Shown: piece after piece, positions 470 through 30,695 of the stretch
Numbering within the stretch: the stretch's first letter is position 1
Layout: each line of letters begins with the position of its first letter
Source of the DNA: Vicinamibacterales bacterium
GTDB lineage: Bacteria; Acidobacteriota; Vicinamibacteria; Vicinamibacterales; UBA2999
Assembly: GCA_035649395.1 (NCBI GenBank)
Contig: DASRJR010000174.1
Location: 94,878-158,877 of the forward strand
Reading direction: 5' to 3'
DNA length: 64,000 nucleotides
Notes under the pieces: generated by a model
What the model saw: only the letters and a program-made list of their open reading frames with translations
Databases searched by the model: none
Told to the model about the DNA's origin: nothing
Made by a program: the position numbers and the translations under genes

Positions 470-615
470 AAGCGCTCAAGTGAGGCCGTGTGTGACGGCC
501 CGAGTAATGTGTCCACGGGTCCCCAACACGGAGACCCTCTCAGTGACCTTCAAAGCCTGTATCGGCTGGAGCCTACTGATCCTTAGGCGCCCTTGTGTCA
601 ATATGTTGGCGCCCC

Positions 616-1989
616 ATGTCCGCCGCGGCTCCACACCTGCTTTTCGTCGATGACGAGGCGACCCTGCGGGGGCTGATGGCGGAACGGCTCGCCGAACGGG
701 GGTTCGAGGTCGTGGAGGCAGAGAGCGGCGAACGCGCCTTGGCTTTTCTGGACCAATTCGCGTTCGACATCATCATCACGGACCTGCGGCTCCCCGGCAT
801 CGACGGGGCCCGCGTCATTCAGGCGGCCCGAGAGCGCTACCCGGGCATTGTCGCAATCGTGATTACCGGTTATGGCACCGTCAAAGACGCGGTTGACGCG
901 ATCAAGCGTGGCGCGTCGGATTTCATCGCCAAGCCCTTTCAGTTCGACGAGCTGATTCACGTGCTGCAGAAGGCGATGGAGCAGCGCCGGCTCACCTCGG
1001 AAAACGCCTATCTCCGCTCACAGCTCGAACAGCGCTATCAGTTCGAGGGCATCCTCGGGCACAGCCGCCCGATGCAAAAACTGTTTCACGTGCTCGAGAC
1101 GGTCGTGCGCTCGAGCAGCACCATCCTGATCACGGGTGAGACTGGAACGGGCAAAGAAGTGGTCGCGCGCGCCATTCATCACAACAGTGCGCGGCGAGCG
1201 TATCGGTTCGTCGCACTGAACTGCAGCGCGATTCCCGAGACATTGCTCGAGGCCGAGCTGTTTGGCCACGTTCGTGGGGCGTTCACGGGTGCGGTTGGTG
1301 CACGACAAGGCCGCTTCGAGCAAGCGCACAAAGGCACGCTGTTCCTCGACGAAGTTGGCACGATGAGCAATGCGCTGCAGATGAAGCTGCTGAGAGCGCT
1401 GCAGGAGCGCGAGTTCGAGCGTGTCGGCGACAGCCAGACGATCAAAGTCGACGTGCGAGTCATTGCCGCGACGAATTCCGACCTGGCGAAGATGGTGGCG
1501 GAGGGAACGTTCCGTGAGGACCTCTACTACCGCCTCCACGTGATCCCGATTCATCTGCCGCCGCTGCGCGATCGGCGCGAAGACATTCCGGTGCTCGTCA
1601 AACACTTTCTCGAAAAGTTCGCGCCGGGATCGCAGATGCAACTATCCCAGGTGGCGATGCGGGCCTTGATGGCGTACCACTGGCCGGGAAACGTCCGTCA
1701 GCTCGAGAACGCGATGGAGCGCGCGGTCGCGCTCAGCGGCGGACGCAGGGAGATCGACAGCGGAGACTTGCCGGCCGAACTGCAGGTGACGCCGCCCGCA
1801 ACCGCCACACCAAGCGTCGAGTTTCCAGAAGACGGGCTCGACTTGCCCGCGTATCTCGCCGCGATCGAACGCGACCTCATTCGACGTTCCCTGGATCGCA
1901 CCGGCGGGAATCGAAACCGCGCCGCCGAGTTACTGCGCATCAAACGCACGACGCTCGTCGAGAAGTTGAAGCGACTCGGAACGGTGTGA
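616..1989 (+). CDS. sigma-54-dependent response regulator, NtrC family (receiver + AAA+ + Fis-type HTH)
   Basis: Receiver motif LLFVDDE...ITDLRLPGIDG, Walker A GETGTGKE, GAFTGA loop, and C-terminal GGNRNRAAELLRIKRTTLVEKLKRLG. The ORF opens at GTG 595. ATG 616 gives a typical short lead-in to the receiver, so the start is uncertain. Confidence 0.9.
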   Translation: MSAAAPHLLFVDDEATLRGLMAERLAERGFEVVEAESGERALAFLDQFAFDIIITDLRLPGIDGARVIQAARERYPGIVAIVITGYGTVKDAVDAIKRGASDFIAKPFQFDELIHVLQKAMEQRRLTSENAYLRSQLEQRYQFEGILGHSRPMQKLFHVLETVVRSSSTILITGETGTGKEVVARAIHHNSARRAYRFVALNCSAIPETLLEAELFGHVRGAFTGAVGARQGRFEQAHKGTLFLDEVGTMSNALQMKLLRALQEREFERVGDSQTIKVDVRVIAATNSDLAKMVAEGTFREDLYYRLHVIPIHLPPLRDRREDIPVLVKHFLEKFAPGSQMQLSQVAMRALMAYHWPGNVRQLENAMERAVALSGGRREIDSGDLPAELQVTPPATATPSVEFPEDGLDLPAYLAAIERDLIRRSLDRTGGNRNRAAELLRIKRTTLVEKLKRLGTV

Positions 1990-2820: not shown

Positions 2821-4017
2821 TCAGCACGCCGGCGTGTACGCGGACGAGGGCCGATCCTGACGACGCATCGAGGCGCGGGCGGTGCGGTACGGACCGACCG
2901 GCAGATTGCAGTTCTGCTGATAGAGAAACGCGTGGAATCGCTTGTAGTCGGTCGGCGGCAAACCGAACACGCCAAGCAGGGCACGATAGCTCCCGCGCGT
3001 GTGCTCGAGTCCACGATGAATCAACGCCGCGAGATCATCGCGCGTCAGCTCGTGAGCCTTGAACGGCTGGTGAACGACCGTCCAGAAGCTCTCACCAGCG
3101 ATCAGGCGCTCCCACAGTCGATCGGCCGTGCCCGAACCCCGATCGATGCGACGCGGCGCGGTCGCGTTCTGGTCCGGTACGAACGACACGTTCGGTACCG
3201 ACACCGTCGGCGCAGTTTCGCGGCCTCCGCGAATCTCAATCGGCAGATCATCAGCTGTGATCGCGCGATCCCATTCGCGGACGACGAGGCGCTCCGCCAG
3301 GTTCTTCAGTTCGCGCACGTTGCCCGGCCAGCCGTAGGCCACCAGCAGCTGTTCAGCGTCCGCCGTCAGCTCGGGGCAATGCAGCCGATGCGTATCGGCG
3401 GCCCGCCGCAGGTAGTGTTGGAGCAGCAGCAGTACGTCCTCGGCTCGCTCGCGGAGTGGCGGCACGTGAATCTGGATGATGTTCAAACGGAAGTAGAGAT
3501 CCTCGCGGAAGACACCCGCGTCGATCCGCTCGCGTAGATTGCGATTCGTCGCCGTGATCAGACGCACGTCCGAACGGCCGGTCACTCCGTCGACGCCGAT
3601 TGTCTGGATCTCTCCGGTCTCGGCGAAGCGAAGCAACACCGCCTGCATGCGCAAACTCATCTCGCCGAGTTCGTCCAGGAACAAGGTGCCGCGATCGGCC
3701 TGTCGAACGAGGCCCGGCTTGTCACGGTACGCTCCGGTGAAACTTCCGCGCGCGTGTCCGAACAGTTCTGACTCGAGCAGCGTCTCCGGAATCCCACTGC
3801 AGTTCACCGCGACGAACGCACGCGCGACACGTGAACTGTGTTCGTGGATGAGGCGCGCGACGACTTCCTTGCCCGCACCGGTTTCCCCCAGCACGAGCAC
3901 TTTGGCGTCGGTTCTGGCAGCCGCTTCGATCTCGCGACGCAACGCAACGATCGCAGGGCTCTCGCCGAGCAGGACGGGAAGGTTCTTATTTATCCGTGGG
4001 ACAGAAAAGCTCGACAT
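2821..4017 (-). CDS. sigma-54-interacting activator (bEBP-1), PspF-like: AAA+ plus HTH, no N-terminal sensory domain
   Basis: Walker A GETGAGKE, GSFTGAYRDK sigma-54 contact loop, GWPGNVREL. The C-terminal RGSYRALLGVFGLPPTDYKRFHAFL is a Fis-HTH-like variant. I prefer ATG 4017 (MSSFSVP) because it has GGAGAAG upstream. The ORF opens at 4116. Confidence 0.85.
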   Translation of the reverse strand: MSSFSVPRINKNLPVLLGESPAIVALRREIEAAARTDAKVLVLGETGAGKEVVARLIHEHSSRVARAFVAVNCSGIPETLLESELFGHARGSFTGAYRDKPGLVRQADRGTLFLDELGEMSLRMQAVLLRFAETGEIQTIGVDGVTGRSDVRLITATNRNLRERIDAGVFREDLYFRLNIIQIHVPPLRERAEDVLLLLQHYLRRAADTHRLHCPELTADAEQLLVAYGWPGNVRELKNLAERLVVREWDRAITADDLPIEIRGGRETAPTVSVPNVSFVPDQNATAPRRIDRGSGTADRLWERLIAGESFWTVVHQPFKAHELTRDDLAALIHRGLEHTRGSYRALLGVFGLPPTDYKRFHAFLYQQNCNLPVGPYRTARASMRRQDRPSSAYTPAC

Positions 4018-4351: not shown

Positions 4352-5773
4352 CTAGGCCGGCCTGACGGTGCCGTCCGGCCCGGTTGTGCTGACGCGATTC
4401 TTGCCGGCGCGCTTGGCGTGATACAGCGCGCGATCGGCGCGTTCGATCAGATCTCGCGCGGTCACACCGGGCGGCGACACCGCGACTCCAATGCTTGCCG
4501 TCACGTGGAGCGACGCGAGATCGGGCTCACTCCGCTGGTAGGCCTCGACGCGCTGCCGGATGCGTTCGGCGATCGTCCCCGCGCTCTCCGCGTTGCCACC
4601 AGGCATCATCACCGCGAACTCCTCGCCGCCGAAACGCGTGCACACATCGAAGATGCGCACAGAGCGTCGGAGGATTTCAGAGATGTCGCGGATCACCATG
4701 TCGCCAGCGATGTGTCCGAAGCGATCGTTGATGCTCTTGAATCCATCGAGGTCGACCATGAGCAACGCGACTGATGTTGCTTGTCGAATCGCGCGATGAA
4801 GTTCTTCCTCGAGGCGCGCTTGAAAGTATCGTCGGTTGAAGAGACCGCTCACGGGATCGATCACGGCCGCCTGCGCGTACGCTTGCGCCTCGCGCCACAC
4901 GCGCTCGCGACCGAGCGCAATGGCAACAGGCGCGAGCAACGTCCGCACCGCTGCGACGTCATCGTGCGTGTAGGGCCCCTCGGCAATGCGATCGGTCAGC
5001 GAGAGCACACCGAGCGCATCGGTGCCCGCGACGATCGGGACAACGGCAAACGAGTTCGTGCGATAACGCGAGCGTCGTCGCTCACGTCCGGCGGTTGCCG
5101 ACACATCGGCGACCAGAAGTGGAAGCCGCGATTGAAATACAGTGCCGATGACACCAGCGCCCGGCGCGATTCGCAGATGTTCGACGAGCGCGCGTGGGTA
5201 TCCGTACGTCGACACGATCGACAGTTCACCCTCGGGCGTGGCGACGGCGAGCGACGCCATCCGACTCGGCACCGCCTGCACCACGTGCTGGAGCACGACG
5301 TCGGCAACAGATGCGAGTCCGGTCGTATCTGCGAGCGCGCGTGTCAGTCGATGCGTCAACACGTCGACCGAAAGCGTCGCGACCGGTTCCGGCTCGTGTC
5401 CCGCCAGCAGGCTGTGCCCGAGCTCGCGCAACACGGGGGCTGATTGAGTCCAGTTGCCTTCGATCACGAGAAACACCGGCGAGCGCGGCGCCGTGGCAAG
5501 GCTCACGAGTGTCCACTCGACATCCCCCGTGGTCCAGACACCGATCCCGAGATCCGGTTCGGCACTGAGGCGATCGAACGTGTGCGACTCACCATTCATC
5601 GGGACCGCGAGGATCGGATCGGGCCGCGATTCGGCTGCAAGCACCCACACGCCGCCATGCTTGCCCGCCACCGCGGCCTTCGCGTCGATGATGCGATCGA
5701 TCAGGTTGACCAGCTGCTGGAGAAAGGCGCGTGGGCCGGCGTTCTCGGGTACGCGCTGATACACCCGTAGCAA
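4352..5773 (-). CDS. diguanylate cyclase, GAF-GGDEF, with intact active site and I-site
   Basis: A GAF-like segment is followed by DPVSGLFNRRYF...LLMVDLDGFKSINDRFGHIAGD...RIFDVCTRFGGEEFAVMM. RIFD lies 5 residues before GGEEF, which is the RxxD I-site position. Confidence 0.9.
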   Translation of the reverse strand: MLRVYQRVPENAGPRAFLQQLVNLIDRIIDAKAAVAGKHGGVWVLAAESRPDPILAVPMNGESHTFDRLSAEPDLGIGVWTTGDVEWTLVSLATAPRSPVFLVIEGNWTQSAPVLRELGHSLLAGHEPEPVATLSVDVLTHRLTRALADTTGLASVADVVLQHVVQAVPSRMASLAVATPEGELSIVSTYGYPRALVEHLRIAPGAGVIGTVFQSRLPLLVADVSATAGRERRRSRYRTNSFAVVPIVAGTDALGVLSLTDRIAEGPYTHDDVAAVRTLLAPVAIALGRERVWREAQAYAQAAVIDPVSGLFNRRYFQARLEEELHRAIRQATSVALLMVDLDGFKSINDRFGHIAGDMVIRDISEILRRSVRIFDVCTRFGGEEFAVMMPGGNAESAGTIAERIRQRVEAYQRSEPDLASLHVTASIGVAVSPPGVTARDLIERADRALYHAKRAGKNRVSTTGPDGTVRPA

Positions 5774-5965
5774 CGCGAGCCGTTGCTCAGGAGAGAGGGC
5801 GCGAGGACCAGCCGCCGGCAGCCGTGGGTGTGGGTTCGCCAGTTGAAATCCCTTGTCGAGGAGACATTCCCCCGCGTTTGGGAATCCTGCTTCACCGCTC
5901 TGAACCGCGCGATCACCTTTTCAGGCGCAGTCCAGTAGGGTTATTGATCACTGCCAGCTGAGCTG

Positions 5966-5980
5966 GCAACAAGCGTGCCT
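5966..5980 (-). promoter_or_regulatory. sigma-54 promoter-like motif P1 (upstream of the GGDEF gene)
   Basis: The minus strand reads aGGCACG-CTTG-TTGC against the consensus TGGCACG-N4-TTGC, with correct spacing. It lies about 190 nt upstream of start 5773. Confidence 0.5.
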
Positions 5981-6098: not shown

Positions 6099-7214
6099 TT
6101 AGCGGTATTCCTTGAACGGGATCTGGCAGTCGTGCTTCCGCAGGAAGTTCAAAAAGCGCTTGTAGTCGCGGGCCTCCATGTTGAACAACCGCGCCACGAT
6201 CTTATAGTTCCCGCGAGCCTCTTCGAGTCCGCGTCGCACCACCTCGCGCACGTTTGCGCGCGTGATTTCGCGATCCATGAACAGCGGATACACCGCGGTC
6301 CAGAACGACTCGTGCTGCTCGATCATTCGTTTGTAGAGATCGTCGGCAACCGTCCGTCGTCGCTCGCGCTTCGGACGAAGCAGCACTGCGTCGTAAGAGC
6401 GGATCTCGGAAGACAGATGCTCGACTTCGATCGTGGGTCCCGAGACGGTGACGACGAGTCGTTCGATGACGTTCTCGAGCTCGCGCACGTTGCCCGGCCA
6501 CGAGTATTCCGAGAGGGCCTTCATCGCTTCGGGCGAAATGGCGGTGATGTGACCGCGGTTCCCCGAGAACTGCGCCAGGAATTCGTTCGCGAGTACCGGG
6601 ATGTCTTCGCGGCGGTCGCGCAACGGTGGCACGACGATGTGAATCACGTTCAGCCGATAGAACAAGTCCTCACGGAAGGTGCCCTGCTTGATCATTTCGC
6701 GGAGATCGCGGTTCGTGGCTGCGATCACGCGAACGTTGACGATGCGGCCACTCCCATCGGCACCGACCTTCTGGATCTCGCCAGTCTCGAGAAAACGAAG
6801 CAGTAGCCCTTGCATTCGCAGCGTCATCTCGCCGACTTCGTCGAGGAAGATCGTGCCCATGTGGGCAGTCTCGAGCTTGCCGGGCTTGTCGCGATACGCT
6901 CCCGTGAAACTCCCCTTGACGTGGCCGAACAACTCAGATTCGAGCAACGTTTCCGGCAGGCCGGCGCAATTGACCGGCGCGAAGACGTGCCCGGCCCGAG
7001 GGCCGCGCGAGTGAATGGCGCGGGCGACGATTTCCTTGCCGACGCCGCTCTCCCCGGTGATCAACACCTTGGCGTCGGAACGCGCGACGCGATCGATCTC
7101 CTGCTCGAGCGCGGCGACCTCGGCACTGCGGCCGGTCAACTGAACATGAGACCGCGGGCGTAGCGCGCCGACCGGGCTTACGCGATGAGAGGTCTCAGCA
7201 ACACCATCAATCAT
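6099..7214 (-). CDS. sigma-54-interacting activator (bEBP-2), PspF-like, no sensory domain
   Basis: GESGVGKE, GSFTGAYRDKPGK, SWPGNVREL, and C-terminal SFWTAVYPLFMDREITR...RGNYKIVARLFNMEARDYKRFLNFLRKH. ATG 7214 overlaps the stop of the upstream PilZ gene. Confidence 0.9.
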   Translation of the reverse strand: MIDGVAETSHRVSPVGALRPRSHVQLTGRSAEVAALEQEIDRVARSDAKVLITGESGVGKEIVARAIHSRGPRAGHVFAPVNCAGLPETLLESELFGHVKGSFTGAYRDKPGKLETAHMGTIFLDEVGEMTLRMQGLLLRFLETGEIQKVGADGSGRIVNVRVIAATNRDLREMIKQGTFREDLFYRLNVIHIVVPPLRDRREDIPVLANEFLAQFSGNRGHITAISPEAMKALSEYSWPGNVRELENVIERLVVTVSGPTIEVEHLSSEIRSYDAVLLRPKRERRRTVADDLYKRMIEQHESFWTAVYPLFMDREITRANVREVVRRGLEEARGNYKIVARLFNMEARDYKRFLNFLRKHDCQIPFKEYR

Positions 7215-7518
7215 TGTTTATGAACCGTTCAATAAGACGCCGATGCTCCGGCGACATCCCCACGAACGTAGCGCCGATGCGATAACCCGAACCGGCTTCG
7301 GACGGCGTCGACACGCGCTGCACCTGAATGTCCGCCGAGAACGGCGCCCCGGCCAGAGTGAACCGGAGGCTTCCTCGCGCACCCGGATTGAGCAGATGCG
7401 CCGACTGCAGCAACACCCCTGCGGAGCTGATGTCGATCACGCGCACACTCATGTTGGCGGGAAGGTTCACGAACTCGCCGCCGACTTCATGCCGTGGGGA
7501 TCGTCGACGCTCTTCCAT
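7207..7518 (-). CDS. PilZ-domain protein (PilZ-A), canonical c-di-GMP-binding motifs
   Basis: RRSPR matches RxxxR and DISSAG matches DxSxxG. I prefer ATG 7518 because it has GGAGGA 9 nt upstream. The ORF opens at GTG 7575, so the alternative start cannot be excluded. Confidence 0.8.
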   Translation of the reverse strand: MEERRRSPRHEVGGEFVNLPANMSVRVIDISSAGVLLQSAHLLNPGARGSLRFTLAGAPFSADIQVQRVSTPSEAGSGYRIGATFVGMSPEHRRLIERFINND

Positions 7519-7601
7519 CCCTCGAGGTCCTCCGAAAGTGCTCGGAAAGGTACGGAGCCCGGCGCTCTCGCACACGATTTGAGCCTTATGGCGTGACGGG
7601 C

Positions 7602-7617
7602 TGCAAGCAAGTCGCCA
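7602..7617 (-). promoter_or_regulatory. sigma-54 promoter-like motif P2 (upstream of the PilZ-A / bEBP-2 pair)
   Basis: The minus strand reads TGGCGAC-TTGC-TTGCA. The GG and TTGCA elements are at consensus spacing. Confidence 0.5.
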
Positions 7618-7782
7618 TTGTTGGGCAGACCTTTTTCTTCCACGGCAACTTATTACAACGTAATGGCTTATGCCTGAAGGTGGTCCTCAAAGCACAACCG
7701 ATCCGATCCTAGAAAGTCTGGCCGAATCTGGGCTAAGTCACCTGACAGGGAAGACTTTCCGCGCCGTGACGAGACCGGAGTC

Positions 7783-8106
7783 CTACGAGGACGGCCAGTC
7801 GGTGGCGGCAGCGAGCGCCGGAGGTATGGACAAGAACTCGACGCCGACGAGGTACCGGATAGGTTCATCGGGTCCGGAAACTCGCCTGACATGACGCACC
7901 CGGGCGTCCACGGTGATGTCGTGACCGTGTAGCTTCAGGTGGAGAGGCTGGATGGAATCGGGGGGCATGGCCACCGGCGACGTAATCAGTGCTCCATCCC
8001 GGCTGATGTTGACGACTCGCGCGGGCTCGGACAATTCGAGCGTGGCCCAGAGGGCGCCAACGACTTCGAGACGAACGCGCGCACGACGGTCTCCCAACGC
8101 CATCAC
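7783..8106 (-). CDS. PilZ-domain protein (PilZ-B), canonical motifs
   Basis: RARVR matches RxxxR and NISRDG matches NxSxxG. The start (GTG 8106 or ATG 8103) overlaps TGA 8105..8103 of the upstream gene. Confidence 0.8.
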   Translation of the reverse strand: MMALGDRRARVRLEVVGALWATLELSEPARVVNISRDGALITSPVAMPPDSIQPLHLKLHGHDITVDARVRHVRRVSGPDEPIRYLVGVEFLSIPPALAAATDWPSS

Positions 8107-9827
8107 GACCGCCTCCCGTTGCTGAGACCAGAATTCGTGCTCGTTCCCGAGTGCTCACCGCCGAGGGCGTCGGCTCGCGCGTCGCGAACGAGACCATCAG
8201 CACGACCGACCCCTGGTGTTCGACTCGCCACACCGATCAGGATCGATCCGGCCCCGGGCACGCCGCCGACGATCGCGCGCAGCCGGTCAGCGATGCCCTT
8301 CGCATGATGGGTGGTCGTGTCGTGCATCAACAGTCCTATTTCGCCTTCTGCGAGCGTTCCGGCGAGATCCAATGGCCGGAGTTGCCCTCGCATGCCAGCG
8401 ACCCATCGTTGCGTCGCGCCAGGGAAGAACACCGCGTCGCGCACCAGCAGCACGACGACGGTGACCGGAGAGCCGCGCTCGAGAGCCTCCTTGGCCGACC
8501 GCTCAATCACTTCATGGAAACCGCGCGGGGCAGCGCGTCGATCCCGTCCCCCGGCCATGGCGCGGAGTGCAATCGGCGCCCATGCGACAAACATGCTCGC
8601 CGCCGCATTCACCACGTCCTGGTCCCGCGGCGTGAACGGCAGGCTCTCGCTTCGCGCCACGGCGATGGTCGTAGTGTAATGCCGTTCCGATCGCGAGACC
8701 ATCACCAAACGTTCGTCGCTCGACGTGTCGTGCACCCCAGCGCCCGGCGCGGTGACGCGTAATCCGTGGCCGCCGTTACTCGATTCAATCGCAAGCGATG
8801 CCGACGTCCCGCCGACTTCGACTCTCAAGTCGTCGAGCGCTCGCGCTGCGCGGGACTCGATCCGTTCATCGCCATCGGCCAGTCGCCGGCTGATCGCGAC
8901 CATCACGCGAGAAGCCGCTTCGGAGGCTGCCAGGGCGAGCGCGCACTCGAGCAACGCGAGATACGCGCCGAGCCGCTGCACGTCTTGCGCCCCGATCTCG
9001 CCGGTAAACACCAGCAGCCAGGAACGTCCCTCACGCCGCTTGAAGCGTTTGACGTAGACGTCTTCACCAACAGCGAGGCCGAATCGATCGAGGTGGCCCT
9101 GCGGCAGCCGGGTGAGATCGCCGATCTCGGGCAATCCAACCGTCGGGATCGTTGTGGGACGCTCGGTGGTTCTCGTGCCGGGCAGTGTGACGTCGCGCAC
9201 GAACGAGTCGTCGTCGACTTCGATGTATCCCGAGACCTCGATGTCGTGCCAGACGGCGACGGCTTCGCCAAACAGACGCACGAGCTCTCGGTCGGATTCA
9301 CGCTCCGCCGCTTGCGATAGAAGGCGCGCCAGCGGCGCGAGCCGACTGATCCCGCTCGCGTGAAAGGCCGGCGGACTCTGTAAGTGGGCTTCAACCGCAG
9401 TCGACAGCCACGAGCCGACGAGCTGCAGCTGTGCTCGGGATGATTCGGCGTCCTGCGACATCGGCAGCGCCCGGGCAAGGACCAGGACGCCCGGTGAACT
9501 GCGCTCCATCGTCACCGGGAGACAGATGATTTGAAGCCCGTGCAACGCGGTTGATTGGGGTTGACGGGATTGGAGCGCGTTCGAAAGGGCGGAGCGGAGA
9601 ACGGCGTCGCCGGGTTCGAGCAACCCCGACACACTGGGCGTCGCGCCCGCAGCGAACGGAAGCAGCGGCGCGTATCGTTTGTCAACCAACTGCAGATCGA
9701 CCTTGAGACGACGGCGCAATTCGAGCAGCCAGTCCCACGACCGCTCGCGCACCGCCGTTTCGAATGCGGAGGGTTCCTGTGTCACAGGTGATGTGCTGTC
9801 GGTGACGACCATCAGCGGGGCGCACAC
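8103..9827 (-). CDS. large sensory-type protein with a C-terminal degenerate GGDEF domain that retains an RxxD I-site
   Basis: The C-terminus VTVVVLLVRDAVFF...RPLDLAGTLAEGEIGLLMHD...ILIGVASR...DARADAL follows the GGDEF fold pattern. The signature is AEGEI instead of GGDEF, and RPLD lies 5 residues upstream. The N-terminal ~400 aa are unassigned and look GAF-like by eye only. I prefer GTG 9827 because GAGGAAG lies upstream; ATG 9812 is possible. The ORF opens at 10124, inside bEBP-3. Confidence 0.7.
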   Translation of the reverse strand: MCAPLMVVTDSTSPVTQEPSAFETAVRERSWDWLLELRRRLKVDLQLVDKRYAPLLPFAAGATPSVSGLLEPGDAVLRSALSNALQSRQPQSTALHGLQIICLPVTMERSSPGVLVLARALPMSQDAESSRAQLQLVGSWLSTAVEAHLQSPPAFHASGISRLAPLARLLSQAAERESDRELVRLFGEAVAVWHDIEVSGYIEVDDDSFVRDVTLPGTRTTERPTTIPTVGLPEIGDLTRLPQGHLDRFGLAVGEDVYVKRFKRREGRSWLLVFTGEIGAQDVQRLGAYLALLECALALAASEAASRVMVAISRRLADGDERIESRAARALDDLRVEVGGTSASLAIESSNGGHGLRVTAPGAGVHDTSSDERLVMVSRSERHYTTTIAVARSESLPFTPRDQDVVNAAASMFVAWAPIALRAMAGGRDRRAAPRGFHEVIERSAKEALERGSPVTVVVLLVRDAVFFPGATQRWVAGMRGQLRPLDLAGTLAEGEIGLLMHDTTTHHAKGIADRLRAIVGGVPGAGSILIGVASRTPGVGRADGLVRDARADALGGEHSGTSTNSGLSNGRRS

Positions 9828-9862: not shown

Positions 9863-9878
9863 TGCAATCGACCCGCCA
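9863..9878 (-). promoter_or_regulatory. sigma-54 promoter-like motif P3 (upstream of the degenerate GGDEF / PilZ-B pair)
   Basis: The minus strand reads TGGCGGG-TCGA-TTGCA at exact consensus spacing. It is about 37 nt upstream of GTG 9827, with the SD GAGGAAG in between. Confidence 0.55.
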
Positions 9879-10000: not shown

Positions 10001-11176
10001 TCAGCCGACGTGCGCCATCGGCTTGCGCAACGCGGCCTTGGCCGGTAATGGCGGCAGTGCTAAGCGCGGCTGTCGCTGCGGCTGAACCGTGCCATGACGG
10101 AATTCCCTGAAGTCGGCCCCGCATTGATGTGCCGCTAGGAAATTGAGGAAGCGCTTGTAGTCCTGACTCGACATGCCGAAGAGCTTCAGTAACGCGCGGT
10201 AGTTCCCTCGCGTCGTCGTCAGCCCGCGCCTCACCAGTTCCCGCATGTCATGTCGAGTGATGTCCCTGGATAGGAACAGCGGATAGATGTGATCCCAGAA
10301 CGAGTAACCCCCGTGAACCAGCGCTGTATACAGCTCGTCGGAAATCTGGGAGCGGCGCTCGCGCATCGGCAATATCGATTGCGCCGGTACACGTACCGTC
10401 TCCGGGAGGTGCGGCACATCGACGACATCGCCGTGAGACAGCCACATCGCCTGCTCGACGACGTTCTGCAGTTCACGGACATTGCCAGGCCAACGATGGC
10501 GACGAAGGCAGATCATCGCCTCCTCAGTGAAGCGAGCGACGCGCCCAGTCCGCTCGATGAAGTGCGCCACGAGCACCGGAATGTCTTCGCGTCGGTCGCG
10601 CAGCGGCGGCACCTCGACATGAATGACCCGCAACCGGTAAAGGAGATCCTCTCGAAACTGACCCGCTGCAATCAGATCGGCCAGATTTCGATTGGTTGCC
10701 GCAATCACCCGCACGTTGACCGTCGTGACGCGCGTATCGGCTCCGACCGCTTGAATCTCTCCGTTCTCGAGAAACCGCAGCAACATCGCCTGCATGCGCA
10801 GGCTCATCTCACCCACCTCGTCGAGGAAGACCGTGCCCCCATGCGCGGCCTGCAGCTTCCCCGCTTTGTCGCGATACGCGCCGGTGAAGCTGCCCTTCAC
10901 GTGCCCGAACAACTCGGACTCGAGTAACGACTCGGTGAGTCCGGCGCAGTTCACCGGAACATAGGGCTGATTCGCGCGGCGCGATCGGAAGTGAATGCGT
11001 CGCGCGATCAGATCCTTGCCGACACCACTCTCCCCAGTAATGAGCACCTTGCCGTCGGAAATGGCAGCGCGATCCGCCGCGGCAACCAGCGCGTGCATCG
11101 ACGCACTCGCGACGATCAGAGATGAACCGGGACCAAGCGCACTTGGCCCCGGTCCAAGGTGAGAATCGGTCGACAT
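10001..11176 (-). CDS. sigma-54-interacting activator (bEBP-3), PspF-like, no sensory domain
   Basis: GESGVGKD, GSFTGAYRDKAGK, RWPGNVREL, and C-terminal SFWDHIYPLFLSRDITR...RGNYRALLKLFGMSSQDYKRFLNFLAAH. I prefer ATG 11176 (MSTDSH) because GGGAG lies 7 nt upstream. Confidence 0.9.
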   Translation of the reverse strand: MSTDSHLGPGPSALGPGSSLIVASASMHALVAAADRAAISDGKVLITGESGVGKDLIARRIHFRSRRANQPYVPVNCAGLTESLLESELFGHVKGSFTGAYRDKAGKLQAAHGGTVFLDEVGEMSLRMQAMLLRFLENGEIQAVGADTRVTTVNVRVIAATNRNLADLIAAGQFREDLLYRLRVIHVEVPPLRDRREDIPVLVAHFIERTGRVARFTEEAMICLRRHRWPGNVRELQNVVEQAMWLSHGDVVDVPHLPETVRVPAQSILPMRERRSQISDELYTALVHGGYSFWDHIYPLFLSRDITRHDMRELVRRGLTTTRGNYRALLKLFGMSSQDYKRFLNFLAAHQCGADFREFRHGTVQPQRQPRLALPPLPAKAALRKPMAHVG

Positions 11177-11247
11177 CAGTGGCTCCCGTCCACGTATGCT
11201 GCGAGTGTGAAATTCTGTTACCTGCTCAAAGCGGCGCACCTTGAGTC

Positions 11248-11263
11248 AGCAAGTTTCACTCCA
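11248..11263 (-). promoter_or_regulatory. weaker sigma-54 promoter-like motif P4 (upstream of bEBP-3)
   Basis: The minus strand reads TGGAGTG-AAAC-TTGCT. The GG and TTGC spacing is correct, but the -24 element is only TGG. Confidence 0.3.
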
Positions 11264-11413: not shown

Positions 11414-11722
11414 CTACGCCCGCCACAACGCCGTCCGGAGACTGTGTGTGCCGGGGGGGTTGGTCCAGAGGAATCGCGCGCCGAGGTGGTAGACCGATCC
11501 GGCGCCGGCAATTGGCTGGCATCTGACGATCTGCACGTCATCGACCAGCTCGCGCCCGTCAATCACGACCCGAATCGAGGCGACGGCACCGACATCGAAC
11601 CGGCGTTCGGTCTCGATCAGGCATCCCGAGGCGCTGCAATTGAGCACCCGCATCTGACAGAGTCGTGTGATGATGCCCAGTCGGTCGGCCGCTGGTGCGT
11701 CGCTACTCCCTTCGTCTCTCAT
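11414..11722 (-). CDS. PilZ-like protein (PilZ-C) with NxSxxG but no clear RxxxR
   Basis: NCSASGCLIE matches (D/N)xSxxG, followed by a beta-rich VVIDGRELV...VYHLGARF. ATG 11722 shares one nt with the upstream stop in a TGATG junction. Confidence 0.6.
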   Translation of the reverse strand: MRDEGSSDAPAADRLGIITRLCQMRVLNCSASGCLIETERRFDVGAVASIRVVIDGRELVDDVQIVRCQPIAGAGSVYHLGARFLWTNPPGTHSLRTALWRA

Positions 11723-12027
11723 CAACGTCGTCCCTGATTCAGCAGATCGCCTTCGTGCTCGTCGATCTGCCGTAACCAAAGGCGATGGCGCACGGCTCCG
11801 TCCGTCATGACAGGTCGGCTCTCGACGACCCTGGCCACGTGTGTGGTGCCGTCGTCGAGTGATTCCACGACAACGGTTTCATCGAGCACACCGGCCTCGC
11901 GGCTCATCGCAATCCACTCGCCCTCTGTCCGTTCGGACAAAACCACATCACGCGTCACCCGCATTACGCCTATAGCGCCATCCGCGATCGTCATTCTCGA
12001 ATAGCTACGCCGCCCCAGCATCCACAC
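11722..12027 (-). CDS. hypothetical small protein, first gene of the PilZ-C pair
   Basis: 101-aa ORF (MWMLGRRSYSRMTIADG...). GAGG lies upstream of the alternative ATG at 12021. No family recognised. Confidence 0.45.
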   Translation of the reverse strand: MWMLGRRSYSRMTIADGAIGVMRVTRDVVLSERTEGEWIAMSREAGVLDETVVVESLDDGTTHVARVVESRPVMTDGAVRHRLWLRQIDEHEGDLLNQGRR

Positions 12028-12231: not shown

Positions 12232-12588
12232 TTACCGCTTGATCGTGGATAACTTCTCGTTGACGAGGGCCACCAGCGCCGAAGGAGAAATTGGTTTGAC
12301 GACGTAGTCGGCGCCCGCTCGACGAGCCTCGGCCTCAAGAACCTGGTCGGGGAAACCGGTCACGATGATCGTCGGAATTGGACGTGGATTGAGCAGGAGC
12401 AGCTGCAGCCCGTTGAAGCCGCCGAGACGCAGATCGGCGATCACCAGGTCCGGGCTCTCGACTTGAACGGCGTGGCGACCCTCCTGATACGTGCTGGTCG
12501 CGATGACCTCGTGGCCTGCGAGGTTCAGCAGCTCACGATAGCCCGCGCGGGTCGCGTCATCATCCTCAACAATAACGATCTTTGCCAT
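12232..12588 (-). CDS. single-domain CheY-like response regulator
   Basis: MAKIVIVEDDD...DLVIADLRLGGFNGLQLL...IVTGF...YVVKP. It has a receiver domain only. Confidence 0.85.
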   Translation of the reverse strand: MAKIVIVEDDDATRAGYRELLNLAGHEVIATSTYQEGRHAVQVESPDLVIADLRLGGFNGLQLLLLNPRPIPTIIVTGFPDQVLEAEARRAGADYVVKPISPSALVALVNEKLSTIKR

Positions 12589-12845: not shown

Positions 12846-13310
12846 ATGAGCGAGCCGCCTGACGACGAATTCTTCGTGTCCATGCCGGACGGCTCCCTCG
12901 ACGACCTGTTCGCGGGCCTCGAAAAGTCGCTCAAGACCGACCCGTCCGAGCCAGCTGCAGCCGCCACGAGGGAACAGGCGCCGCCAACGGCGGACGCCCC
13001 ACCCGCTCGCGCCGAACGTCGACGCGCGCCGCGACGCGAAGCCCACGAGTTCAAAACGGAACTGCGGCTGGCCGTGGCGGGCTTCCCGATGAAGCTCGTC
13101 AACCTATCGTCCACGGGATTATTGGCCGAAACAAGTCAAAGGTTGTGCCCGGGTCGCACGGTCGATGTTTTCCTGCGATACGGCGGCGTTCGCCGCGTGC
13201 TCCGTGCGACCGTGATTCGATCGTCGATGCACGCCGTCGCACCAACGCCGGTGTTCCGGGCGGCACTTCAGTTCGAAGACACGCTTACCTTGCAGGACGC
13301 TGACTTATGA
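12846..13310 (+). CDS. PilZ-domain protein (PilZ-D) with an acidic/Pro-rich N-terminal extension
   Basis: RRAPR matches RxxxR and NLSSTG matches NxSxxG. The stop overlaps the next start in an ATGA junction at 13307-13310. Confidence 0.8.
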   Translation: MSEPPDDEFFVSMPDGSLDDLFAGLEKSLKTDPSEPAAAATREQAPPTADAPPARAERRRAPRREAHEFKTELRLAVAGFPMKLVNLSSTGLLAETSQRLCPGRTVDVFLRYGGVRRVLRATVIRSSMHAVAPTPVFRAALQFEDTLTLQDADL

Positions 13311-15055
13311 GTTTGCTGCCATCGCTGTGCGCGGCCCTCGAGCGGGCGGGTGGACAACGTCTCATCATGCGGGCCGGTGAACGTCCCCACGTGCTTGCGG
13401 GGGACCGTCGCCACGACGTGGCGACGGCGGTCCTGTCGGTCAATGCCGTCGAAGCGCTCGTCGATCAGATCCTTTCGAGCGACAGCCGCCGTGCCCTCGC
13501 CGAGCGCGGTTCGGTCGAAGAGGTGTTGAATACGCCAGCGTTTCCGCAGCCGCTGACCGCGCGCGCCGAGCGCGTCGGCGACGATTTCTGCGTGGAGTTG
13601 CTCGTGACTACGTCGCAGCCAGAGACAGAACCGGTTCCAGTGAGCAAGCCCGATCATGAACCGCAGCCCGTGGCCGCCATCGAGGAGGTCCCCGCAGACC
13701 TCGCATTGGATGAGGCCGGTCCGCTTCCGGTGACGCCCGTCATCGAGACCTTCCAGGGGTCGCACGAGATCGCGCTCAACGTTGCGTCGCCGACGCCGCG
13801 GGAGACGCCTCGCATTGAACCGCATCCGCCTGTGCGCGTCGTCGCTCGCGTCGAAGAACCGGTCCATAAGCCAACCGTCGTCGCCCGCACCGTGAACGCG
13901 CACACTGATCTTCATGGCTGGATCGCGTACGCGTTCGAGCGCGGGTCGACCACGCTGTTCCTGCGCACGGGTGCCCCGCCTGCCGGCCGCATCAACGAGC
14001 GCATTGCACCGATCAGCGACGAGATCGTCGGTCCCTCTGTCTTCGAAGAGATCGCGTCAATCACGACTCGCGGTGGTGACAGCGCGTGGCGCAGTGTGTC
14101 GGATGGCGAGTGGGCGCGCGATCACGCGGACTTTGGGCACGTTACATGCCGCGCGTTCGACGACGATCAAGGCCAGGGCCTGGTCGTTCACCTGGTTCCA
14201 CGCATCACACCAAAGCTGCTGCACAAGCACATACCCCGCCAGGTGCGCACGGCGTGCGAAGGCGACGGCCTCGTCCTCGTCTCGGCTCAAACTGAAGCCG
14301 AGGTCGCGTCGCTCGCCGCCGCGACGGCAGATTGGAGTGGACGCACCCGTGGCGGATATCTGATCGCGTTGCACCGCCGAGGCGCTCGGACCGAGCTCGC
14401 GGGCGCATTCGTCAGCCAGCGCACGGTGAGCGGCGGCGACGCGGATTTCGCCACAGCGATCCGGCGCGCGGCACACGAGGGACCTGACATTCTGCTTGTG
14501 GTCGGCCCACAAACGGAAACGACGCTTCACGAAGCCGTCCTCGCGGCGGCATCAGGCCGGCTGGTGATCGTCGGAGTGGTCGCGCCGACGGCCACGCAGG
14601 CGTTGCAGACGGTGCTCGGTCACAGCGGACTCGATCGCGACGCCCACGTGCGTCGGGCACTTGCCTCGTCCTTCCGCGTCGCGGTCGGCTATCGAACGCT
14701 GCGGCGGCTGGGTGGGGGACGGATTCTTGTTCAGGACATCGTCACGGCGTCGAAGGACGTCCGCGCGCTGGTTGAAGCCGCCGATTTCAAGGGCCTGACC
14801 GCGTTGATTCGCCGCGGCGTGTCGGGGATGCGCTCGGTCGACGAGGCGCTTGCACGCGCGACCAGACGTCGTCAGGTGTCGCTGCGAGAGGCGGCGGCGC
14901 ATGCCGATGATCGCCGTCAGTTCGTCGCGTTGGTCCGCATGCGCGCACGTGCGAGCCATGGCGCGAGAGCCCGAGACATTCACGGACCGATCTCGCTCGA
15001 CGAACGCAGCAGCGGCCGCGCCGCGAGCGGCGGCAAGCGCGCATCACGCGCCTGA
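13307..15055 (+). CDS. PilT/T2SS-E-fold protein with degenerate ATPase motifs (predicted pseudo-ATPase)
   Basis: The C-terminal half is collinear with PilT: GSTTLFLRTGAPPAGRI, GLVLVSAQTEAEVASLAAAT in place of GLVLVTGPTGSGKST, GPDILLVVGPQTETT in place of DPDIILVGEMRDxET, and SGRLVIVGVVAP in place of TGHLVFxTLHT. No GK[ST] Walker A occurs anywhere in the protein. The N-terminus holds a second PilT-N-like segment and a Pro/Glu-rich linker. Confidence 0.8.
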   Translation: MSLLPSLCAALERAGGQRLIMRAGERPHVLAGDRRHDVATAVLSVNAVEALVDQILSSDSRRALAERGSVEEVLNTPAFPQPLTARAERVGDDFCVELLVTTSQPETEPVPVSKPDHEPQPVAAIEEVPADLALDEAGPLPVTPVIETFQGSHEIALNVASPTPRETPRIEPHPPVRVVARVEEPVHKPTVVARTVNAHTDLHGWIAYAFERGSTTLFLRTGAPPAGRINERIAPISDEIVGPSVFEEIASITTRGGDSAWRSVSDGEWARDHADFGHVTCRAFDDDQGQGLVVHLVPRITPKLLHKHIPRQVRTACEGDGLVLVSAQTEAEVASLAAATADWSGRTRGGYLIALHRRGARTELAGAFVSQRTVSGGDADFATAIRRAAHEGPDILLVVGPQTETTLHEAVLAAASGRLVIVGVVAPTATQALQTVLGHSGLDRDAHVRRALASSFRVAVGYRTLRRLGGGRILVQDIVTASKDVRALVEAADFKGLTALIRRGVSGMRSVDEALARATRRRQVSLREAAAHADDRRQFVALVRMRARASHGARARDIHGPISLDERSSGRAASGGKRASRA

Positions 15056-24412: not shown

Positions 24413-25891
<1,479 letters not shown>

Positions 25892-25912
25892 TCAAGCCGG
25901 ACGCTACGCCTG

Positions 25913-26779
25913 TTACGTCGCCGCGGCTCCCGACACGACCTCGATGATCTCGCGCGTGATCGCGGCCTGCCGTACTTTGTTCATGTAGAGCAGCAGGCCG
26001 TCGAGCATCTCCGCGGAGTTGCGCGTTGCCGCATCCATCGCGGTCATCTGTGCCGCAAAGAACGCCGCATTCGATTCGAGCAGCGCGCGATACACCTGTA
26101 CCTGCACGTGACGAGGCAGCAGGTCTTTGAAGATCTGCTCGGGAGCCGGCTCGTACAGGTAATCGATCGTCGGACCAGCCGTGGTCGTATTCTCGAGTCT
26201 TGGGATCGGCAACAGCTGCTCGACGACGATGCGCTGCGACATGACCGATTTGAACTCGTTGTAGACCAGATGCACGCTGCCGACACGTCCCGACGTGAAC
26301 TCCTCGATGGCCGCGTCGGCGAGTGCCGCGGCGTCCGTGAACGACAACCGCTGAAAGATCCCGGCGGCTTCGTAACGAACGTCGAACCCCCGGCGACGGA
26401 AGAAATCACGCCCCTTCCGCCCGACCAGCCCGAGCGCCACTTCCCGTCCCTGCCGACGGCCCACGATGAATTGCCCCGCCGCTTTGATCACGTTCGAGTT
26501 GAAGCTGCCGCAGAGACCGCGGTCTGCAGTGATCACGATCAGCAGCGTCGGCGCATGCGGGTCGATCGTCGCCTTGAGCAGCGGATGCGCGTCCTGATCG
26601 ACGCGTCCGACGAGCCCATTGAGCACGGCCAGCATACGCTGGGCAAACGGCCGCGCGGCGACGACGCGTTCCTGCGCTCTCCGTAGCCGCGAGGCCGCAA
26701 TCATCTTCATCGCCTTGGTGATCTGCTGCGTCGACTTGACGGCGCGGATCCGGCGACGGAGATCGATCAGTGACGGCAT
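25913..26779 (-). CDS. atpG: F-type ATP synthase gamma subunit
   Basis: MPSLIDLRRRIRAVKSTQQITKAMKMIAASRLRRAQ...ITREIIEVVSGA. Confidence 0.95.
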   Translation of the reverse strand: MPSLIDLRRRIRAVKSTQQITKAMKMIAASRLRRAQERVVAARPFAQRMLAVLNGLVGRVDQDAHPLLKATIDPHAPTLLIVITADRGLCGSFNSNVIKAAGQFIVGRRQGREVALGLVGRKGRDFFRRRGFDVRYEAAGIFQRLSFTDAAALADAAIEEFTSGRVGSVHLVYNEFKSVMSQRIVVEQLLPIPRLENTTTAGPTIDYLYEPAPEQIFKDLLPRHVQVQVYRALLESNAAFFAAQMTAMDAATRNSAEMLDGLLLYMNKVRQAAITREIIEVVSGAAAT

Positions 26780-26792
26780 AAACCTCGCGCCG

Positions 26793-28325
<1,533 letters not shown>

Positions 28326-28362
28326 ATCGATTCAATCTCGTTGCGGAGGCGTCGAGGCCTCT

Positions 28363-28905
28363 TTACCGCTCGGCGAGCTGGCCCTTGACCTTCGCCAATT
28401 GGGCGGCGACGCTGCCGTCGTATACCGTGCTGCCAATCCGCGTAATCACGCCACCGATAATCGAAGGATCCACCTTGGTTGTCATCGTCACGGCGCGCCC
28501 GGTGACCGAGGCGAGTCGTTCCTGCAGTTCGGCGACGCGTTGTGGCGGGAGCGGCGCGGCCGTCGTGACCTCCGCGCGAACGATGCGCCGATGCTCCAGG
28601 AGCCGCTCGCGGTAGACGTCGAGCAGATCGGGTAACAGCGGCAGTCGACCTCGCGCCGCCAGCAGTAACAACACTCGTGCCGCCGGCGTGTTCAGCGCAA
28701 GGCGTTCGACGACGCGTTGGACGACCGCCCGTTTGTCAGCTGCCGACACGACGGGGTTCGCCAGCACACGCTGCAAATCCGGATGACCCGCCACGACATC
28801 GACGAACGTCGCGAGCTCCTGTTCGGCGCGTTCGGGATCAGACTCCGTGATGGCTACGTCGAGCAGCGCTCTCGCGTATCGCGCTGCCGAGGCCCGCATG
28901 CTCAT
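28363..28905 (-). CDS. atpH: F-type ATP synthase delta (OSCP) subunit
   Basis: ARYARALLDVA...IIGGVITRIGSTVYDGSVAAQLAKVK, located upstream of atpA. Confidence 0.9.
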   Translation of the reverse strand: MSMRASAARYARALLDVAITESDPERAEQELATFVDVVAGHPDLQRVLANPVVSAADKRAVVQRVVERLALNTPAARVLLLLAARGRLPLLPDLLDVYRERLLEHRRIVRAEVTTAAPLPPQRVAELQERLASVTGRAVTMTTKVDPSIIGGVITRIGSTVYDGSVAAQLAKVKGQLAER

Positions 28906-29019
28906 GGTGTGTTCGGTCTGAAAGCGAGCTTGTACCTGAAAGGCACAAGCGTCTATTTATACCACGCGACGGGCCGGCACCGACAGTCGCGAATCGGGTC
29001 CGGTCGAGCCTCGTGCGGT

Positions 29020-29889: not shown

Positions 29890-29906
29890 GACGTTGTCTC
29901 CTTCCC

Positions 29907-30695
29907 TCAGGCAGCGTGGCGCGCGAGCATCTCTTTCGCGAGCGCGACATACGCGGCGGCGCCCCTTGATTTCGCGTCGTAGAGCACGCATGGAATCCCG
30001 TGGCTCGGCGCTTCTCCCAGACGCACATTCCGCGGAATGATCGTGTTGAAGACCTTCTCCTTGAAGAACTCACGCACGTCACGTGCGACGAGTTGCCCCA
30101 GGTTCGTGCGATCGTCGTACATCGTTAGCAGCACGCCTTCGATGTCGAGACCGGGATTAAGACCACCACGTACGCGTCGCATCGTTCCGACGAGATCGGC
30201 CAAGCCTTCGAGAGCAAAATACTCGCAGTGCAGCGGGATGAGAACTGCGTCGGCCGCTACCAGCGCGTTGAGCGTCAAGAGACCCAGTGAAGGCGGGCAA
30301 TCGACGAAGATGTGGTCGAAGTTCGCGCGAAGCGGATCGAGGACGCGTTTCAGTCGATGCTCCCGCTCTGGCAAGCCGACCAACTCAATTTCCGCCCCAG
30401 TCAGGCTGCGGTCGGCGGGCATGATCGACAGGTTCGTCACGCTTGTGGGGACGATGAACGCCTCCGGAGCGGTATCCGTCAGCAGGGCCTCGTAGGTCGT
30501 TCCGGCTTCAGAGCGCTTGCCTTTCGTCCCGATTCCGCTGGTCAAGTTGCCTTGCGGATCGATGTCCACGAGGAGAACTCGTCGTCCTGCCAGGGCAATC
30601 GACGTCGCGAGGTTGATCGCGGTCGTCGTCTTTCCGACGCCGCCCTTCTGATTGGCAACCGCCACGATGCGGCCGTGGGGAGCTGAATCGGTCAT
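29907..30695 (-). CDS. parA: chromosome partitioning ATPase ParA/Soj
   Basis: The deviant Walker A is VANQKGGVGKTTTAINL. I prefer ATG 30695. The longer ORF (TTG 30845) would read through both parS sites. Confidence 0.9.
   Translation of the reverse strand: MTDSAPHGRIVAVANQKGGVGKTTTAINLATSIALAGRRVLLVDIDPQGNLTSGIGTKGKRSEAGTTYEALLTDTAPEAFIVPTSVTNLSIMPADRSLTGAEIELVGLPEREHRLKRVLDPLRANFDHIFVDCPPSLGLLTLNALVAADAVLIPLHCEYFALEGLADLVGTMRRVRGGLNPGLDIEGVLLTMYDDRTNLGQLVARDVREFFKEKVFNTIIPRNVRLGEAPSHGIPCVLYDAKSRGAAAYVALAKEMLARHAA

Follow-up and report, generated by a model that had tools for sequence, protein, structure and literature searches.

How a sigma-54 activator without a sensory domain of its own receives its signal is the question raised by two overlapping genes in a stretch of 64,000 nucleotides (nt) from a Vicinamibacterales bacterium (GenBank assembly GCA_035649395.1, contig DASRJR010000174.1, positions 94,878 to 158,877), hereafter called the window. 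The first gene, PilZ-A (7207..7518, minus strand), encodes a stand-alone PilZ protein of 103 amino acids (aa); the second, bEBP-2 (6099..7214, minus strand), encodes a sigma-54 activator, or bacterial enhancer-binding protein (bEBP), of 371 aa. Their arrangement in a conserved, overlapping, sigma-54-driven operon suggests that the activator receives its missing signal input through the PilZ protein. The reading that we favor, at a probability of about 0.45, is that PilZ-A is a detachable cyclic di-GMP (c-di-GMP) input module, which controls bEBP-2 in trans.

On the minus strand, the PilZ-A frame ends with TTC ATA AAC AAT GAT TGA, the stop codon occupying 7209..7207, and the bEBP-2 frame opens with ATG ATT GAT GGT GTT, the ATG lying at 7214..7212. 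The 8 nt common to the two genes, ATGATTGA (7207..7214, minus strand), include the start codon of bEBP-2 as well as the stop codon of PilZ-A. When the coordinates were re-read, the first-pass annotation, which had placed the PilZ-A stop at 7209..7207 within the first codons of bEBP-2 (ATG 7214) and described an 8-nt overlap, proved correct. ATG 7214 is taken as the bEBP-2 start because an in-frame stop (TAA here, TGA in relatives) lies two codons 5' of it, and because in many relatives no other start codon is found within 90 nt of it. The longest open reading frame (ORF) for PilZ-A begins at GTG 7575; ATG 7518 is the better start, since a Shine-Dalgarno sequence, GGAGGA (7528..7533, minus strand; GGAGG/GAGGAG-type motifs are conserved in relatives), is found 9 nt before it, and the resulting 103-aa product has the usual orthologue length and matches a public protein. 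Public gene calls contain exactly these 103-aa and 371-aa products, an example being HZM59880.1, a 'PilZ domain-containing protein' from Vicinamibacterales.

Gene overlaps of 4 or 8 nt are ordinary in bacterial operons, so that the weight of the present one comes from its conservation. The closest genomes are metagenome-assembled genomes of Vicinamibacterales (Acidobacteriota) from soil, and one metagenome contig is identical to the window. In about 50 independent loci from Vicinamibacterales genomes and soil metagenomes, a partly redundant set of pairs, PilZ-A lies directly 5' of bEBP-2; in the pooled loci the overlap is kept in about 30, measuring 8 nt in about 25 and 4 nt in the remainder. 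In the genomes, 35 loci had a bEBP-2-type gene together with upstream sequence, and PilZ-A lies directly upstream in 31 of them (30 detected by tblastn, and one, L023, by reading the upstream ORF). Junctions with the 8-nt overlap make up the closest group (15 loci), those with a 4-nt ATGA/GTGA overlap the next one (5 loci, 82-83% bEBP-2 identity), and in deeper groups the two genes are separated by up to 80 nt, going by our own start assignments. The metagenome sample gave a similar picture, with PilZ-A directly upstream in 19 of 20 informative loci, and 8-nt overlaps in 10, 4-nt overlaps in 4 and small gaps in 5, gene boundaries in the more distant loci being extrapolated from partial alignments. 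The underlying scan, carried out with a profile of the bEBP-2 C-terminal domain, covered the closest 80 loci (82-100% identity), and thus supplies more orthologues and no wider census of the family. Pairing persists from 96% down to about 71% bEBP-2 identity, over which range PilZ-A identity falls to 37-40%.

The ribosome-binding signals differ between the two kinds of junction. In overlapping loci, no Shine-Dalgarno motif was found within the 18 nt before the bEBP-2 start (0 of 16 examined), whereas a GAGG or GGAG motif precedes bEBP-2 in 7 of the 8 separated loci; PilZ-A itself has a strong motif in all 11 closely related loci checked. This difference argues for real termination-reinitiation coupling, as opposed to a meaningless overlap: bEBP-2 is without its own ribosome-binding site and most likely relies for its translation on ribosomes that reach it straight after completing PilZ-A. 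The co-translation proposed at first pass is, in this way, backed by comparative evidence.

The PilZ-A protein matches the Pfam PilZ model (PF07238) with 42.6 bits (cut-off 22.5; E=8e-11) over model positions 1-101 of 102. Its RxxxR motif is RRSPR (residues 5-9, R5..R9, counted from the M at 7518), a switch located three residues past the initiator Met, and its DxSxxG motif, DISSAG (residues 29-34), follows 20 residues later. Both c-di-GMP motifs, already called canonical in the first-pass annotation, are retained in nearly all of 92 ortholog clusters, whose members are without exception single-domain proteins of 80-151 aa, mostly 103 aa. In an alignment of 47 sequences R4, R5, R9, D29 and G34 are invariant, S31 is found in at least 90%, and a C-terminal helix motif, IERF, has invariant R98 and F99 and nearly invariant I96 and E97. 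The AlphaFold2 model (mean predicted local distance difference test score 79) is a beta-barrel of five strands with a C-terminal helix, and its best Foldseek matches are the c-di-GMP-bound Alg44 PilZ domain, MrkH and PP4397 (probability 1.0, template modelling scores 0.5-0.7). Judged by its sequence and model, PilZ-A looks like a competent single-domain c-di-GMP receptor. The motifs alone are no proof of binding, since Myxococcus xanthus PlpA has them and is reported not to bind c-di-GMP (PMC8316039).

In bEBP-2, Pfam recognizes the Sigma54_activat domain (PF00158) at residues 27-193 (E=4e-65) and AAA_lid_14 at 199-273, and neither an HTH_8 nor an N-terminal domain was detected in the scan. 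The protein consists of a disordered tail (1-24), the AAA+ core and lid (about 27-273), a linker (275-286) and a helical C-terminal domain (289-371). Walker A (GESGVGKE) and Walker B (FLDEVGE) are invariant among orthologues, which form more than 120 clusters of about 367-377 aa. The GAFTGA loop is present as the variant GSFTGA (G101-A106), without variation in 40 sequences or among the three sensor-less paralogues; the serine variant is assumed to be functional. About 40 residues had initially been assigned to the region preceding the AAA+ core, a figure to be corrected to about 26, given that Sigma54_activat begins at residue 27 and that AlphaFold2 predicts residues 1-24 to be disordered. 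The accompanying claim, that the protein lacks a cis regulatory domain, stands: the Pfam scan finds none, and the disordered tail varies in length and sequence among orthologues, being reduced to barely ten residues in a deeper group. The identities given to the two genes at first pass were confirmed.

The other end of the protein is unusual. The last 85 residues have no HTH_8 match and no sequence relative in the PDB; AlphaFold2 predicts with confidence a helical domain at 289-371, the last three helices of which look Fis-like. The same C-terminal region (6102-6395, minus strand, bEBP-2 residues 274-371) also forms the C-termini of two paralogues encoded in the window, at 2821-4017 and 10001-11179. 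A HMMER scan with this domain retrieved 1,088 cluster representatives. Ten of the longest (347-454 aa, one of them N-terminally truncated) were scanned with Pfam: in 8 of the 9 complete ones AAA+ starts within about 25 residues of the N-terminus, while the ninth has a partial GAF domain; apart from this, all ten are plain AAA+ proteins. Complete members of the family thus appear, from these nine, to be nearly all sensor-less. Non-acidobacterial bEBP matches have REC, PAS or kinase N-termini.

Upstream of the pair lie the elements expected of a sigma-54 operon. A candidate -24/-12 promoter, TGGCGACTTGCTTGCA, is located at 7602..7617 (minus strand), about 85 nt before PilZ-A; its TGGC-N7-TTGCA sequence is found at the same position in about 30 loci, as a conserved block within a variable spacer. 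Close to it, a promoter-proximal element, GGAAGAAAAAGGTCTGCC (7624..7641, minus strand), is seen in a 17-locus alignment to be a perfect palindrome, GGTAGACAAACGTCTACC, in relatives. Further upstream, at 7712..7759 (minus strand), about 95-140 nt from the -24 element, an inverted repeat, GAAAGTCT-N32-AGACTTTC, with 8-nt arms that are 100% complementary, is a candidate enhancer, or upstream activating sequence (UAS). The repeat is conserved in 17 of 17 aligned loci, the divergent group included, and is retained even in L013, a locus without PilZ-A. A search for motifs common to all promoters of the cluster indicated that the GAAAGTCT/AGACTTTC arms belong to the pilZ-A promoter alone; what three of the promoters share is a GTCTGCC core, placed upstream of them at varying distances. 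The conserved promoter and the upstream inverted repeat strongly support the view that pilZ-A/bEBP-2 is itself a sigma-54-dependent, enhancer-controlled operon.

The pair is part of a larger cluster transcribed leftwards, in the order receiver gene, PilZ-C/bEBP-3, 569-aa protein gene, PilZ-B, PilZ-A, bEBP-2, GGDEF gene and bEBP-1. The core of it, from the 569-aa protein gene to bEBP-1, is conserved across the order, and the PilZ-C/bEBP-3 unit is restricted to a subclade. The 569-aa protein (8103..9812, minus strand; start ATG 9812 inferred from alignment) has weak GAF-like similarity (a weak GAF_3 match) and a C-terminus resembling a degenerate GGDEF domain (phmmer match to the diguanylate cyclase 8wcn, E=0.005), in which AEGEI replaces GGEEF; five residues before it, an RxxD I-site (RPLD) is intact. 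The protein may be a c-di-GMP receptor in the style of PelD or PopA. PilZ-B (7783..8106, minus strand), a second stand-alone PilZ protein with the motifs RRARVR and NISRDG, overlaps the stop of the 569-aa gene with its start by 4 nt (ATGA, 8103-8106), and lies directly upstream of PilZ-A in nearly all loci. On the other side of the pair, a GAF-GGDEF diguanylate cyclase (4352..5773, minus strand, start codon uncertain; GGDEF E=3e-45, GAF_2 E=2e-13) looks active, its GGEEF and RxxD I-site being intact. It is followed by bEBP-1 (2821..4017, minus strand), a paralogous sensor-less activator, which is 50% identical to bEBP-2 and shares its C-terminal domain. Divergently from the cluster, in most relatives as in the window, a further conserved pair is transcribed: PilZ-E (12846-13310, plus strand, 154 aa), the fifth PilZ gene, overlaps by 4 nt (ATGA) the start of a gene for a 582-aa PilT/PilU-like protein (13307-15055, plus strand). 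Stand-alone PilZ genes of this organism thus seem characteristically to overlap a partner gene, as in 569-aa/PilZ-B, PilZ-E/582-aa and PilZ-A/bEBP-2.

Sigma-54 elements are not limited to the pilZ-A promoter. Candidate promoters were also found about 50 nt before the 569-aa gene, for the 569-aa/PilZ-B operon (TGGCGGGTCGATTGCA, 9863..9878, minus strand), and between bEBP-2 and the GAF-GGDEF gene (AGGCACGCTTGTTGCC, 5965..5980, minus strand; the block RGGYAYNNTTGTTGCCA is conserved in 12 loci), and a candidate element lies before bEBP-3 (11248-11263, minus strand). All four conserved TGGC-N7-TTGCA elements are intergenic and on the coding strand, and in alignments of 12-18 loci the promoter blocks stand out as conservation islands amid variable spacers. 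The neighboring c-di-GMP genes, too, therefore appear to be sigma-54-dependent. Taken with the pilZ-A promoter, the three further elements suggest a multi-tier sigma-54 cascade or an autoregulatory network; the rpoN gene is absent from the 64,000-nt window.

In the mechanism that we propose, PilZ-A would bind bEBP-2 and c-di-GMP would alter that grip; the ATPase activity or oligomerization of bEBP-2, and hence sigma-54 open-complex formation, would follow the c-di-GMP level. The role of PilZ-A would lean towards inhibition, of the anti-activator kind exemplified by PspA, FleN and HrpV, because translation would yield PilZ-A first, and no less of it than of bEBP-2, and because bEBP-2 survives the loss of PilZ-A in some lineages. 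The likely targets of bEBP-2 would be its own operon, the 569-aa/PilZ-B operon and the GAF-GGDEF cyclase gene, all of which have conserved sigma-54 promoters, and by driving the cyclase promoter bEBP-2 would close a c-di-GMP feedback loop, either homeostatic or bistable. The complete picture, in which PilZ-A as a c-di-GMP-gated anti-activator and the sigma-54-driven GAF-GGDEF cyclase form a self-contained feedback switch conserved in Vicinamibacterales, is put forward slightly more tentatively than the trans control itself. A regulatory link is favored over plain co-expression because translational coupling makes bEBP-2 synthesis depend on PilZ-A translation, and because the other PilZ genes mentioned above likewise overlap partner genes. 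Modulator first and target second is, moreover, the usual order for gene pairs whose products have to be balanced. The neighborhood of the pair, dense in c-di-GMP genes and sigma-54 promoters, supports this reading too.

Several observations weigh against control of bEBP-2 by PilZ-A. Simple co-expression would also account for the adjacency of the genes and their coupling. Fusions uniting the two proteins were looked for from both sides: none of the 92 PilZ-A relatives has a fusion partner, and no PilZ fusion was found among the 10 scanned representatives of the C-terminal-domain bEBP subfamily. The N-terminal tail of bEBP-2, considered as a docking peptide, is disfavored, being variable and nearly absent in the deeper group. 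Neither bEBP-1 nor a paralogue group found at loci L024, L026, L028-L030 and L060 has a PilZ gene upstream, so that PilZ is not a general partner of this activator family. In two independent lineages, represented by L013 and L020, PilZ-A and PilZ-B are both missing and bEBP-2 is kept, which makes PilZ-A dispensable for bEBP-2 and at most its modulator, most simply an anti-activator. Both loci retain the 569-aa gene and the sigma-54 promoter, and L013 the enhancer repeat as well. As a side remark, the disappearance of both at once hints at joint action of the two PilZ proteins; the label Bifidobacteriaceae, carried by the L013 record, looks like a binning or labelling error.

These observations bear most directly on the main alternative, which we consider less probable than trans control by PilZ-A and, taken by itself, rather unlikely. 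Here bEBP-2 would be constitutively active once made, and controlled solely through its synthesis from the sigma-54 promoter, driven by bEBP-1, by bEBP-3, by the REC-type NtrC activator encoded at 595-1989 or by bEBP-2 itself; PilZ-A would be a co-expressed c-di-GMP effector with a target elsewhere, such as polysaccharide, pili or the cyclase. For enhancer-binding proteins (EBPs) without N-terminal domains, Kazakov et al. 2015 (PMC4641369) name two explanations, a partner protein or a cascade, the latter being what this alternative invokes. Such control gains real weight from the presence of a conserved sigma-54 promoter before every unit of the cluster, pilZ-A/bEBP-2 included, and from the sensor-less paralogues, bEBP-1 and several others, that have no PilZ gene upstream; the persistence of bEBP-2 without PilZ-A in L013 and L020 also speaks for it. 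It leaves unexplained, however, why bEBP-2 translation should depend on PilZ-A, as indicated by the conserved overlap and the missing Shine-Dalgarno motif, and why this PilZ gene has remained beside this activator through deep divergence.

Two other explanations are improbable, to a similar degree. According to the first, the AAA+ domain of bEBP-2 would bind c-di-GMP directly, as FleQ, FlrA and FlrC do, with PilZ-A acting as an independent effector or buffer. Several bEBPs do bind c-di-GMP themselves (PMC10333796, PMC10723142), and the pre-AAA+ tail of bEBP-2 is arginine-rich (RPRSHVQLTGRS). The arginines by which FleQ contacts c-di-GMP are R138, R144, R185 and R334, with R151 contributing in trans (PMC10723142). 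When bEBP-2 was aligned to the structures 5exp and 5exx and four of these positions were compared, R138, R144 and R151 were found to correspond to L18, V24 and A31; only R185 has a conserved counterpart, R65, and R185 is a general bEBP ATPase residue, not diagnostic of c-di-GMP binding (PMC10723142). A FleQ-type N-terminal domain is missing as well. That the contact arginines are mostly not conserved agrees with the distinction from FleQ-type direct binders drawn in the first-pass annotation; it favors a regulatory link between PilZ-A and bEBP-2, and an indirect c-di-GMP route fits it.

According to the second, PilZ-A, PilZ-B and the 569-aa degenerate-GGDEF protein would sense c-di-GMP as a complex of their own, and bEBP-2 would merely regulate their expression. 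The genes for PilZ-B and PilZ-A stand side by side in all cases and have twice been lost jointly, and the 569-aa protein retains its RxxD I-site. In a deeper group (L022-L027), furthermore, a sigma-54 promoter separate to PilZ-A was not detected, and just about 100 nt lie between PilZ-B and PilZ-A, so that all four genes may share the promoter of the 569-aa gene. Nevertheless, the translational coupling of PilZ-A is with bEBP-2 and not with PilZ-B, and in most lineages a promoter and the UAS lie between the two PilZ genes. Finally, the idea that a single PilZ-bEBP fusion gene has been split by an assembly frameshift, or that its halves are rejoined by programmed frameshifting, finds a parallel in the fused PilZ-EBP architecture of MXAN_2902 (PMC8316039) but is effectively refuted by the comparative data, since the same layout of two ORFs in different frames, with conserved stops in both, recurs in about 50 independent assemblies, a stop in the bEBP-2 frame lies two codons 5' of its ATG, and in distant relatives the genes are up to 80 nt apart with a Shine-Dalgarno motif before the second in 7 of 8, so that PilZ and AAA+ are not one polypeptide.

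As to known systems, the first-pass annotation had named PspF, controlled by PspA, as the precedent for a sensor-less activator regulated in trans. The likeness in architecture to PspF of E. coli holds: bEBP-2 consists of an AAA+ core and a C-terminal region, without N-terminal regulatory domain, and its alignment with the NCBIfam PspF model runs from end to end; the logic proposed here, by which a small separate protein gates the activator, is alike too. As the one precedent, however, it is too narrow, since HrpV-HrpS, FleN-FleQ, MXAN_2902 and TssZ-HinK are also to be considered. Nor is bEBP-2 an orthologue of PspF, scoring 251.5 bits with TIGR02974 against a cut-off of 443.55 bits, and its C-terminal domain is longer, helical and unrecognized by HTH_8. 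No match to the PspA family was found among the neighbors of bEBP-2 (PilZ, GGDEF, bEBP, receiver and PilT-like genes). The candidate partner in the present case is a PilZ c-di-GMP receptor whose gene stands first in the shared operon and is coupled to that of the activator in translation, an arrangement unlike that of pspF and pspA, which are transcribed separately. In Pseudomonas syringae, HrpR and HrpS are likewise devoid of an N-terminal regulatory domain, and HrpV acts on HrpS; NifL acts on NifA. HrpR/HrpS-HrpV and NifA/NifL resemble the proposed system in that bEBP activity is set by a separate inhibitory protein, and differ from it in having unrelated partners, no PilZ-borne second messenger and another gene arrangement.

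With FleQ/FleN, FlrA, FlrC, VpsR and Nla24/EpsI the system would share the control of sigma-54-type activators by c-di-GMP, and FleN is a trans-acting anti-activator of FleQ (PMC8528422, PMC10723142). FleQ, FlrA, FlrC, VpsR and Nla24/EpsI, however, bind c-di-GMP themselves, and bEBP-2 is without their N-terminal domains; the nucleotide-binding module would here be a separate PilZ protein. PilZ-A, being a single domain of about 100 aa with intact RxxxR and DxSxxG motifs, is in turn similar to the PilZ proteins of the P. aeruginosa pairs TssZ-HinK, MapZ-CheR1 and HapZ-SagS. TssZ acts in trans on the transcription factor HinK, and c-di-GMP weakens that interaction (PMC10912698). TssZ has a LasR-type regulator as its partner, MapZ a methyltransferase and HapZ a histidine kinase, none of them an AAA+ sigma-54 activator; in the examples considered, these partners came from interaction screens and not from a coupled operon, whereas the link of PilZ-A to bEBP-2 is a genomic one. 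A PilZ domain and an EBP are also combined in MXAN_2902 of M. xanthus, a functionally uncharacterized EBP to which a PilZ domain is fused that is predicted to be unable to bind c-di-GMP (PMC8316039). Compared by described architecture, it likewise unites PilZ and a sigma-54 EBP in one regulatory unit, and constitutes a cis precedent of the Rosetta-stone type, the only such fusion found and one taken from the literature, in which the two parts are fused, whereas PilZ-A and bEBP-2 are split. Full-text literature searches retrieved no description of a separate PilZ protein regulating a sigma-54 activator in trans, and the arrangement in which known parts are combined here is one not previously described.

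To our knowledge, every established route from c-di-GMP to sigma-54 transcription runs through an activator that binds the nucleotide itself: FleQ, FlrA, FlrC, VpsR or Nla24. A detachable PilZ module would add a second, modular route. PilZ-A would, if true, be the first PilZ adaptor to control an AAA+ enhancer-binding protein in trans, which would extend existing principles without overturning them. It would also explain the signal input of at least one clade of sensor-less activators, within a family of about 1,090 representatives sharing an undescribed C-terminal domain. Most stand-alone PilZ proteins have, as far as we know, no known partner, and a conserved, coupled neighbor provides a concrete and testable one. 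The system is compact, with two small genes, one promoter and one enhancer repeat, and could be rebuilt in E. coli. Vicinamibacterales are abundant, largely uncultured soil Acidobacteria, and such a rebuilding would open the c-di-GMP signalling of hard-to-culture members of this phylum to experiment.

Some features of the locus are of minor relevance to the pair. In the 5' leader of the GAF-GGDEF gene (about 5843-5888, minus strand), 80-130 nt downstream of the sigma-54 promoter, a block GATTCCC..GGGGAAT..TCTCC....GGATTTCA, conserved in 12 loci, has hairpin potential; checked as a possible riboswitch, it had no match in Rfam, and could be an RNA element or an operator. At the upstream end of the cluster, a gene for a receiver-domain protein (12232-12588, minus strand) is followed by a degenerate PilZ-like ORF (11722-12027, minus strand) and by PilZ-C (11414-11779, minus strand), both upstream of bEBP-3 (10001..11179, minus strand), a paralogous sensor-less activator 57% identical to bEBP-2; all three are found only in the subclade. 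The 582-aa protein encoded next to PilZ-E (E=2e-21 to PilU) has an N-terminal extension of about 200 aa, and its residues aligned to the PilU Walker A are not conserved; with such a degenerate Walker A it is probably a PilT-like pseudo-ATPase. That the 582-aa and 569-aa proteins might be paralogues was tested and rejected. At the other end, the fourth sigma-54 activator of the window (595-1989, plus strand), already mentioned as a REC-type NtrC, is of the classical kind, with a receiver domain, canonical GAFTGA and HTH_8; it flanks the cluster, a position conserved in relatives, and is a candidate for the input at the top of a cascade. The rest of the window is made of housekeeping genes (ATP synthase, parAB, mnmG, mnmE and yidC, 24413-37038; also mfd), along with one tRNA gene (57253-57339). 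Such a gene content is typical of the replication-origin region, and the housekeeping surroundings indicate that the regulatory cluster is part of the core chromosome, not of a mobile island.

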